Positions 313 through 1,326 of a DNA stretch of 1,326 bases are shown here, piece by piece. The notes under the pieces were generated by a model. The model was not told the DNA's origin and made no database searches. It worked only from the letters and a program-made list of their open reading frames with translations. Made by a program: the position numbers and the translations under genes. Position 1 is the stretch's first letter, and the number at the start of each line of letters is the position of its first letter. The stretch is taken from the NCBI RefSeq assembly GCF_003334255.1, contig NZ_QOWU01000163.1; one strand, given 5' to 3'. The DNA comes from Escherichia coli (GTDB lineage Bacteria; Pseudomonadota; Gammaproteobacteria; Enterobacterales; Enterobacteriaceae).

Positions 313-1326
313 TCACGATGCGGTATCAAAATCGTCTGTATAGGATTTCAGGTAAAACAGAACCGGGTCATGGATCCGAATTTTACTCTTATCATGAAGT
401 ATTGAACCACCCATGTAAAAAAGCACATCTGCTTCATACCTGAATGTAATTTCAACCCGCACATCACCCTGTCCGGCAGGAATACTCCATGAGCCTGACG
501 CACTTCCGCCAACATCAGAATATACCGGCTCATATCTGCTGGCGTTTTTGGAAATCTGGACCTCCCGCTCCCCGGTTTTGACTTTGCCTGACCTGGCATG
601 AACGACAACTTTGTCATTTATCTTCATGATGAATTCACCTCTGGAAAATGAATACGCCATAAGCATAAGCTTGCGATCAAACGGCATGTTGTCTTTCAGC
701 AAAATCATTTTCTGAAAAGTCAGCTGGTTCTGAGTCATTACGCCCTGCCCCATATCAACCGTGTATCCCTTGACGATATCACCAATGATTCGGTCAGCGC
801 TCATCGTTCCATTAATGGTGCAGTCTTCCGCAATCGTCACGTTATTCAGCGTACCGGAACTGGCACTGATATTCCCGCTGATATCGGCATTACGGGCCGT
901 CAGCCTGCCGTCCGGCGTCAGGGAGAATGCCGGGGGATTGCCGCCGCTGGTAATGGTGGGGGCGGTAAGAACCTTTATCAGGGCCTCATTGATAAACGTC
1001 TGTCCCCCCTGCGTGACCAGTGCGGGTGTGGTATCACCATTCTCCGGATTAATGAATGCCACACGGTCCGCTGCCAGCAGTATCTGGCTCTGCATCCCGT
1101 CAGGGGTGTTCTCAATACCGGCACCGATACCGGCAATATAGCGACGACCATCCTGCATCTGCTGTAGCTTCACCGCCCACATGCTGTTCAGGTCATTATT
1201 TGTGTCCGTCTGCACACGCTGGATTTGCTGTATGGTGGCGTTCTGGTCCTCCAGCGTTTTACTGACCGTCTGCGTGATTTCATTGCGGGTTTCTGTGATG
1301 GTGGTCTGCATTTCCGCCATCTCGTC
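313..1326 (-). CDS. J: Host specificity protein J (lambda gpJ-like central tail fiber / tip attachment protein), C-terminal 337 codons; 5' end beyond the window
   Basis: One continuous minus-strand reading frame runs from the window edge at 1326 to a TGA stop at 313..315 (plus-strand 'tca'); the ORF track lists it from an internal Met at 1320, but the frame stays open for two more codons (D, E) to the edge. The translation contains motifs I recognise from the lambda J C-terminal region: MWAVKLQQMQDGRRYIAGIGAGIE, then LLAADRVAFINPENG, then LTAPTITSGGNPPAFSLTPDGRLTARNADISG, then NVTIAEDCTINGT and IIGDIVKG. It is by far the longest ORF, and the other listed ORFs are nested in it in other frames. 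The last ~150 aa are not recognisably lambda-like. Confidence 0.9.
   Translation of the reverse strand, partial: DEMAEMQTTITETRNEITQTVSKTLEDQNATIQQIQRVQTDTNNDLNSMWAVKLQQMQDGRRYIAGIGAGIENTPDGMQSQILLAADRVAFINPENGDTTPALVTQGGQTFINEALIKVLTAPTITSGGNPPAFSLTPDGRLTARNADISGNISASSGTLNNVTIAEDCTINGTMSADRIIGDIVKGYTVDMGQGVMTQNQLTFQKMILLKDNMPFDRKLMLMAYSFSRGEFIMKINDKVVVHARSGKVKTGEREVQISKNASRYEPVYSDVGGSASGSWSIPAGQGDVRVEITFRYEADVLFYMGGSILHDKSKIRIHDPVLFYLKSYTDDFDTAS

Follow-up and report, generated by a model that had tools for sequence, protein, structure and literature searches.

The distal parts of J and of the side tail fiber gene stf are the classic exchange modules of lambdoid phages, and the genomes of these phages are pervasively mosaic. 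In such host-range modules (the distal parts of J and of stf/tfa; HK97 and HK022), a conserved virion-proximal part is followed by a variable distal part, and base composition drops toward the distal end. The domain order of the tail-tip protein gpJ has been described for lambda (Ge & Wang 2024, PMC11101478). [quoted passage not shown] Natural gpJ C-termini have been fused at lambda residue 964, and the resulting chimeras were functional (Brodel et al. 2024, PMC11338833). The RBDs of the A8 and 1A2 gpJ chimeras (9WCA/9WCB) bind OmpC, and both are of sequence types other than the RBD described here.

Herein, we describe the 3′ end of a lambdoid J gene of Escherichia coli. The window, by which we mean the whole stretch of DNA that was analyzed (1,326 nt of contig NZ_QOWU01000163.1), has the same arrangement of conserved and variable parts, with a distal drop in composition. 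Nothing essential distinguishes its J from the lambdoid mosaic modules; it is one further instance, with a rarer RBD type. An initial annotation had read positions 740–800 as a compositional break and a likely recombination junction, beyond which a horizontally exchanged receptor-binding module was thought to lie. The account that we favor, and regard as rather probable, is that the conserved fiber of gpJ simply meets its RBD at this locus, an ordinary domain boundary, with the RBD evolving as an exchanged host-range cassette.

Layout of the window

The J open reading frame (ORF) was the sole long ORF in the window, and its start lies beyond position 1326, where the window is open. It was 100% identical to the final 1,014 nt of the gene for a 1,176-aa gpJ in a prophage of E. 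coli SCU-104. RefSeq names the full-length identical gene of SCU-104 gpJ, and the genes for the tape measure, L, K and I lie upstream of it. This synteny (L, K and I upstream of J, a side tail fiber downstream) was present in the loci of SCU-104, PhiR12_5, PhiR12_1 and SCU-106. The following features were recorded in the window:

1–128, minus strand: start of a stf-like side tail fiber gene, MTVRISGVLKDGTGKP..., left end open (from translation and composition)
140–163, minus strand: putative terminator hairpin and T-run in the spacer downstream of the J stop (consensus match only)
313–1326, minus strand: 3′ end of the lambdoid tail-tip (host specificity) gene J, 337 sense codons, stop codon at 315–313
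316–537, minus strand: distal third of the RBD, with the deepest GC3 deficit (from the change point and the amino-acid-corrected test)
316–768, minus strand: RBD, 151 aa, GC 0.448, GC3 0.483
370–486, minus strand: polymorphic distal RBD block, two alleles, 7 codons differing, all nonsynonymous
487–849, minus strand: near-invariant tract of 363 nt, identical in 12/13 alleles; one base, at 800, differs in SCU-106
769–783, minus strand: GDIVK motif, the final residues common to other J proteins (from protein and blastn end points)
850–872, minus strand: hypervariable patch right after NADISG, at the foot of the central fiber; the allele groups differ at 10 of its 23 nt
850–1233, minus strand: Pfam Phage_Tail_Tip (PF09327), aa 32–159, E 4e-31
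874–969, minus strand: best-conserved stretch, LTAPTITSGGNPPAFSLTPDGRLTARNADISG (GGNPPAF...NADISG), a natural crossover site

When compared with the solved chains of lambda gpJ, aa 15–228 of the window J matched 8IYK_J (E 3e-65) and 8XCJ_Z (E 4e-66). The NCBIfam model NF049904 (lambda_TipJ) aligned to aa 2–295 and scored 310 bits against a curated cut-off of 1950; the score lies under the cut-off because the window holds only 337 of about 1,176 residues. By analogy with the domain order of lambda gpJ, the PF09327 region would fall in the alpha-helical shaft and the beta-prism central straight fiber.

In PhiR12_5, a 1-bp deletion in a G-run (coding strand) at window positions 927–931 (locus L001 5408–5486) breaks J in two, leaving a 974-aa 'J' and, as a separate gene, a 175-aa 'hypothetical protein' that carries the RBD. 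This deletion may reflect a genuine frameshift or an artefact of sequencing. Judging from its annotation, the J gene of PhiR12_2 is apparently split like that of PhiR12_5. Antisense to J, the GC-rich part of the gene held ORFs of 126 aa (761–1141, plus strand) and 69 aa (1056–1265, plus strand), and no evidence was found that either of these is a gene.

The spacer between J and stf measured 184 nt in the window (129–312) and was without a gene. Elsewhere this spacer is occupied, by lom in the DEC5B prophage (L002 3966–4586) and lambda, and by the gene for a Hok/Gef toxin in the prophage of KY174 (L009 4151–4291); its position looks like a variable cargo slot. The stf-like start at 128–1 resembled the beginning of lambda Stf; in E. 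coli genomes, the gene is annotated as 'prophage tail fiber N-terminal domain-containing protein'. Downstream of J, the stf-like gene was broken up into partial pseudogenes in SCU-104 and 99RCEF (L003 7199–8383; L007 4699–5574) and intact in SCU-106, S1-CAM-02-A and PhiR12_1.

The receptor-binding domain and the end of homology

A sensitive blastn search with window positions 700–1326 matched 4,579 E. coli records, 1,136 of which had a match covering at least 80%. The initial annotation had called for a nucleotide alignment to lambdoid J genes, and a homology breakpoint was indeed located by it: against over 1,000 E. coli J genes with different C-termini, the alignments stopped at 764–770, right after GDIVK, at about 74–76% identity (query end points 557–563, that is, window 770–764). 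At the protein level, similarity to the J proteins of lambda and of the Stx type (DEC5B) stopped after GDIVK as well (codons 783–769). The RBD types of lambda, DEC5B, KY174 and the window all begin directly after this motif, which in lambda gpJ (LamB-binding RBD; 8XCJ/8XCK; PF12421) is the end of the central straight fiber.

In a protein with a conserved and a variable part, the point where alignability ends does not in itself establish a recombination junction. In the part called conserved, third-position identity with lambda was only 0.25–0.55, so that synonymous sites are near saturation, and across the last 1.4 kb of either allele no J gene with a different RBD was found above about 82% identity. 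Because third positions are nearly saturated and identity upstream is at most 82%, the end of homology marks the end of protein-level constraint and not a recent junction. An abrupt switch from high to low identity was not seen at 740–800 when the window was compared with related sequence, since J genes with other RBDs were 74–82% identical upstream of it. The conserved part was also unevenly so: identity to lambda reached 90% (nucleotide) and 95% (amino acid) in the 20 codons starting at 960, and window positions 1200–1326 were merely 16–45% identical to lambda, with a 24-residue indel. 

The RBD of the window had no match to Pfam PF12421 even at E≤10, whereas lambda-type RBDs do match this family; phmmer of the RBD alone against PDB sequences gave nothing at E≤10, and no NCBIfam model matched it. 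A match to PHROG 5269 was found (E 1e-17). The closest other RBD type found was that of E. coli JNEC-KY174 (WP_074434872.1), which was 32% identical to the window RBD over 101 aa (E 2e-17). The KY174-type J has the junction GDIVKGY and a drop in GC3 similar to that of the window; it differs from the window J in that nucleotide alignment fails beyond 764 and that its J is followed by a Hok/Gef gene ahead of stf.

When profiles were compared by hhalign, the window type alone was matched to the lambda-type RBD profile with 48% probability. After the KY174 type was added, the probability rose to 94.5% (E 7.8e-8), with 92 collinear columns against lambda-type RBDs. In an alignment of nine RBD sequences, the D, FDR, N and AG-G positions were invariant, and the motifs D-x3-FDR, N-G and AG-x-G are common to lambda gpJ and the window. 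An AlphaFold (AF2) model built from the nine-sequence alignment had a pLDDT of 68, and the insertion described below was unstructured in it; a single-sequence AlphaFold run of aa 113–337 gave a pLDDT of 40 and was unusable. The top four matches of the AF2 model in a Foldseek search of the PDB were lambda gpJ (8XCK, 8XCJ) and the OmpC-binding A8 gpJ (9WCA, 9WCB), with E values from 8e-8 to 9e-7 and TM scores of only 0.47–0.49, and the next match after the gpJ structures was four orders of magnitude weaker; this ranking is to be read with the model's input in mind, since the alignment held lambda-type sequences and the model also covers 35 conserved fiber residues.

From the profile comparison and the predicted fold, we conclude that the window RBD is homologous to that of lambda gpJ, although very diverged, and that it carries about 23 inserted residues. 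The idea that the C-terminal domain is unrelated to the RBD of lambda was rejected on the hhalign probability and the gpJ matches in Foldseek. Thus, the earlier statement that the protein stops resembling lambda J at this point holds for alignability, which ends after GDIVK, but not for descent, as the domain beyond it is a remote homolog. The 190 residues upstream are clearly homologous between the lambda and window J proteins. The window RBD differs from that of lambda in that the domain alone has no significant direct match to PDB chains or to PF12421, and in its insertion, its longer C-terminal tail and its GC3 (0.48 vs 0.62 in lambda). The domain would bind an outer-membrane receptor and set host range; no receptor information was found in the literature for the PhiR12 phages.

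The collinearity of the two domains, including the FDR and AG.G motifs, speaks for a serious rival to the account that we favor. In this rival, which we rate as possible rather than probable, the RBD diverged in place from the ancestor of the J genes: it was never swapped at the boundary, substitution was rapid under diversifying or relaxed selection, and AT-biased mutation with weak codon selection lowered its GC3. The flanking DNA points in the same direction. Since that flank is saturated at synonymous sites relative to lambda and shares at most about 82% identity with any other J type, the whole C-terminal third of J is old.

The same observations bear on a third explanation, in which a foreign, low-GC receptor-binding module was imported horizontally and recently through a crossover at 740–800. 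The end of alignability to other J genes at 764–770 would suit such an import, as would the difference in GC and GC3 between the two halves and the rarity of the RBD type. However, the RBD is homologous to the RBDs of other J proteins and not foreign. In addition, no parent that combines the same backbone with another RBD was found (the best were about 80–82% identical), and neither was a donor outside E. coli. We consider recent import to be very unlikely.

The window RBD type is rare. It was present in 29/5,426 E. coli genomes, always inside a full-length match to the window, and in nine IMG/VR contigs; tblastn of the RBD against phages found five PhiR12 phages only, and a search of plasmids found no copy. 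A peptide-pattern scan of 100,044 species-representative genomes, the sensitivity of which was limited, gave 116 pattern matches, and none was confirmed. No lower-GC donor of the RBD was found in these genomes or in plasmids; the RBD was seen only in E. coli and in viral contigs. A word-indexed protein search and a HMMER search of 1.84 billion representatives returned same-family fragments and weak, repeat-driven matches to Ig-like repeat proteins only. This last result was not read as rarity; full-length J proteins probably cluster behind representatives with other RBDs, since the KY174-type relative escaped these searches too.

Base composition along J

The DNA encoding the RBD had been judged by eye to be more AT-rich than the DNA encoding the conserved part, and calculation confirmed this. 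GC was 0.447 (44.7%) and GC3 0.487 in 316–765, compared with a GC of 0.553 (55.3%) and a GC3 of 0.663 in 766–1326, and both differences were significant in Fisher tests at this boundary (p=0.001 for all bases; p=0.0013 for GC3). The A/T runs pointed out in the RBD DNA were found at 354, 381 and 417. The conserved half was not rich in GGC, GCC and CGG codons, as had also been stated (5.9% vs 6.7%).

If no real feature existed, then the GC difference would be due to chance or to the amino acids that the two protein parts contain. Codons for K, M, I, F and N are frequent in the first half of the RBD, and GC1 and GC2 were lower in the RBD (0.50/0.36 vs 0.54/0.45), with no significant change point for either position. 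Against this stands the amino-acid-conditioned GC3, for which expected values were derived from how codons are used in the 838 upstream codons of J, outside the window. The observed GC3 of the RBD was 0.483, while 0.696 was expected (P<5e-5); the conserved J part in the window was not deviant (0.667 observed, 0.71 expected). Since the deficit survives conditioning on amino acids, the GC3 difference is real and not an amino-acid artefact. Amino-acid composition was refuted by this test as the cause of the GC drop. The GC3 change point was also significant by permutation, and the same pattern recurred in independent J types. The absence of any real feature is thus hardly credible.

The AT-richness of the RBD DNA is genuine, but the change toward it is gradual. 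The likelihood change point of total GC was placed at 848, with a support interval of 452–906 (permutation p=0.014), and that of GC3 at 537, with a support interval of 516–684 that leaves out 740–800 (permutation p=0.001). Neither coincides with 740–800, where the initial annotation had put the compositional break, nor with the homology breakpoint at 764–770, so the claim that composition switches where resemblance to lambda J ends did not hold either. The lack of a sharp step at 740–800 also counts against a recent import. GC3 fell in two steps, from 0.667 to 0.597 (768–538) and then to 0.365 (537–316), and the distal stretch (316–537) fell far short of the 0.669 expected from its amino acids. 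A GC-rich patch lay inside the RBD at about 450–600.

In the start of the stf-like gene (128–1), GC was 0.609 and GC3 had returned to 0.714; the stretch of low GC3 thus forms an island that does not extend beyond the RBD. The average GC3 of E. coli is roughly 0.55, and the last 74 codons of the RBD (0.365) lie far below it. These codons also lie far below the gene as a whole (0.72). Because of this depth and of the immediate rebound in the next gene, local mutation bias alone is a poor explanation, which tells against divergence in place.

Drops in GC3 were not confined to the window J. In HK97 J, GC3 was 0.347 in the last 150 codons and 0.645 in the rest; in the KY174-type J, it was 0.459 in the RBD and 0.741 in the rest; and in the Stx/DEC5B-type J (71 IMG/VR loci), it was 0.527 and 0.687, respectively. 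The drop was weak in lambda J (0.624 vs 0.701 in the rest) and absent from N15 gp21, whose printed sequence is without the GDIVK motif or a lambda-type C-terminal domain. Since 71 of the 74 IMG/VR sequences sampled for RBD diversity carried one Stx-type RBD, this cross-type comparison rests on only six J types. In stf-like genes, GC3 was about 0.75 in the N-terminal 60 codons and 0.38–0.5 distally (L006 4699–6120, L008 4699–6189, L004 5197–6759). As the drop recurs in J types and in stf-like genes, a low-GC3 RBD is typical of lambdoid host-range modules.

Therefore, being common to other J types, the GC3 drop is no specific mark of a recent import here. Of the receptor-binding module described in the initial annotation, the domain boundary and the deviant composition stood; its recent import from a foreign source was weakened both by this recurrence and by the homology of the RBD to that of lambda. 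Along many J genes, GC3 declines gradually from the body to the last 186 codons and then to the RBD, a pattern that agrees with divergence in place.

Mosaic alleles and the history of the domain

The 13 alleles with this RBD formed a patchwork of blocks (1273–1199, 1165–982, 972–946, 872–850, 486–384 and 371–370). The four-gamete test of Hudson and Kaplan gave an Rmin of 5 in 1,014 nt, and one of its intervals, 1024–486, spans 740–800. Blocks 872–850 and 486–370 showed all four combinations. Since four gametes were found at several block pairs and Rmin is 5, recombination among the alleles is frequent. The distal block at 370–486 reassorts freely with the upstream blocks. The patch at 850–872, which reads NISASSGT in one group and TITASAGV in the other, is the last polymorphic block ahead of the invariant tract.

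A single crossover was resolved to a short interval. SCU-106 and L092, a viral contig, switch from PhiR12-like to window-like sequence between 931 and 872, within the conserved GGNPPAFSLTPDGRLTARNADISG stretch and upstream of 740–800. Lambda residue 964, in an alignment made here, is the G of NADISG (window codon 876–874) and lies within this natural crossover interval. Because chimeras joined at that residue function (PMC11338833), the part of J downstream of NADISG is a transplantable host-range module. At 740–800 itself no crossover can be placed, because the interval lies inside the 363-nt tract that is identical in 12/13 alleles. Recombination among the alleles was thus found, but not a demonstrable junction at the position where one had been expected. 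No Chi site was found in the window. The junction was free of repeats, and neither promoter-like nor terminator-like signals fell within 740–800. Both the invariance of the tract and the position of the sole short-interval crossover upstream of it argue further against a recent import at 740–800.

The recombination partners co-reside. Both RBD alleles were found in three viral contigs (L092, L099 and L100) of one IMG source (643348545), and one E. coli chromosome (NZ_CM129862.1) had six places that matched. In these two cases, several prophages with the same tail-tip specificity apparently reside together.

The distribution of differences along J has a bearing on divergence in place. In the distal RBD block, 7/7 differing codons were nonsynonymous, while the region 850–1275 had 12 nonsynonymous and 20 synonymous differences (one-sided Fisher p about 0.003, by hand calculation). 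In addition, at all eight base differences in 370–486 the window allele had A or T where the other had G or C. Both observations count in favor of divergence in place. However, seven out of seven nonsynonymous changes are not significant against neutrality alone (0.75^7, about 0.13). The mosaic alleles also stand against divergence in place, as do the classic exchange of the distal parts of lambdoid J and stf and the fact that chimeras work.

The account that we favor, of a domain boundary with an exchanged cassette beyond it, can be set out as follows. Upstream of the boundary, J would form the trimeric central straight fiber, which has to match the remainder of the tail tip and would be under purifying selection. 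From 768 downstream, the RBD would contact a host outer-membrane receptor and evolve as a host-range cassette. Its AT-richer, GC3-poor DNA would then reflect a history unlike that of the J body, a history of cassette exchange among lambdoid phages and prophages together with fast turnover under host-range selection. Lambdoid phages that reside in or infect the same cell would exchange the cassette through homologous recombination, with crossovers wherever sequences are similar enough, chiefly in GGNPPAF...NADISG (874–969) and, between close alleles, within the RBD. The conserved start of stf downstream may serve as a crossover site as well. Under this account, this RBD cassette would have been exchanged across the 765 boundary, and its low GC3 would stem from a separate history; the low GC3 could equally have arisen in place.

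For the J genes of lambdoid phages, the locus belongs to a well-known kind of feature and is of little consequence beyond annotation. The RBD boundary in this J type can be set at window 768/769, after GDIVK, and the type is one that Pfam PF12421 misses. For genome scans, the lesson is that composition change points should be computed and not judged by eye. The point of exchange, in nature as well as in practice, is NADISG, further upstream, and this is useful for gpJ chimeras that retarget lambda-based particles. The two natural alleles, seven residues apart, could serve as a small natural experiment on host-range determinants. It is conceivable, if doubtful, that the RBD (316–768) recognizes a receptor unlike the known ones of lambdoid J proteins (LamB, OmpC, FhuA and others), and that positive selection acts on its two alleles, which differ only by seven changes within the final 60 residues and would be variants in host range. 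If this is true, then the recurrent depression of GC3 in the receptor-binding parts of J and stf would be the mark of a shared pool of lower-GC cassettes or a mutation-driven signature of an arms race.
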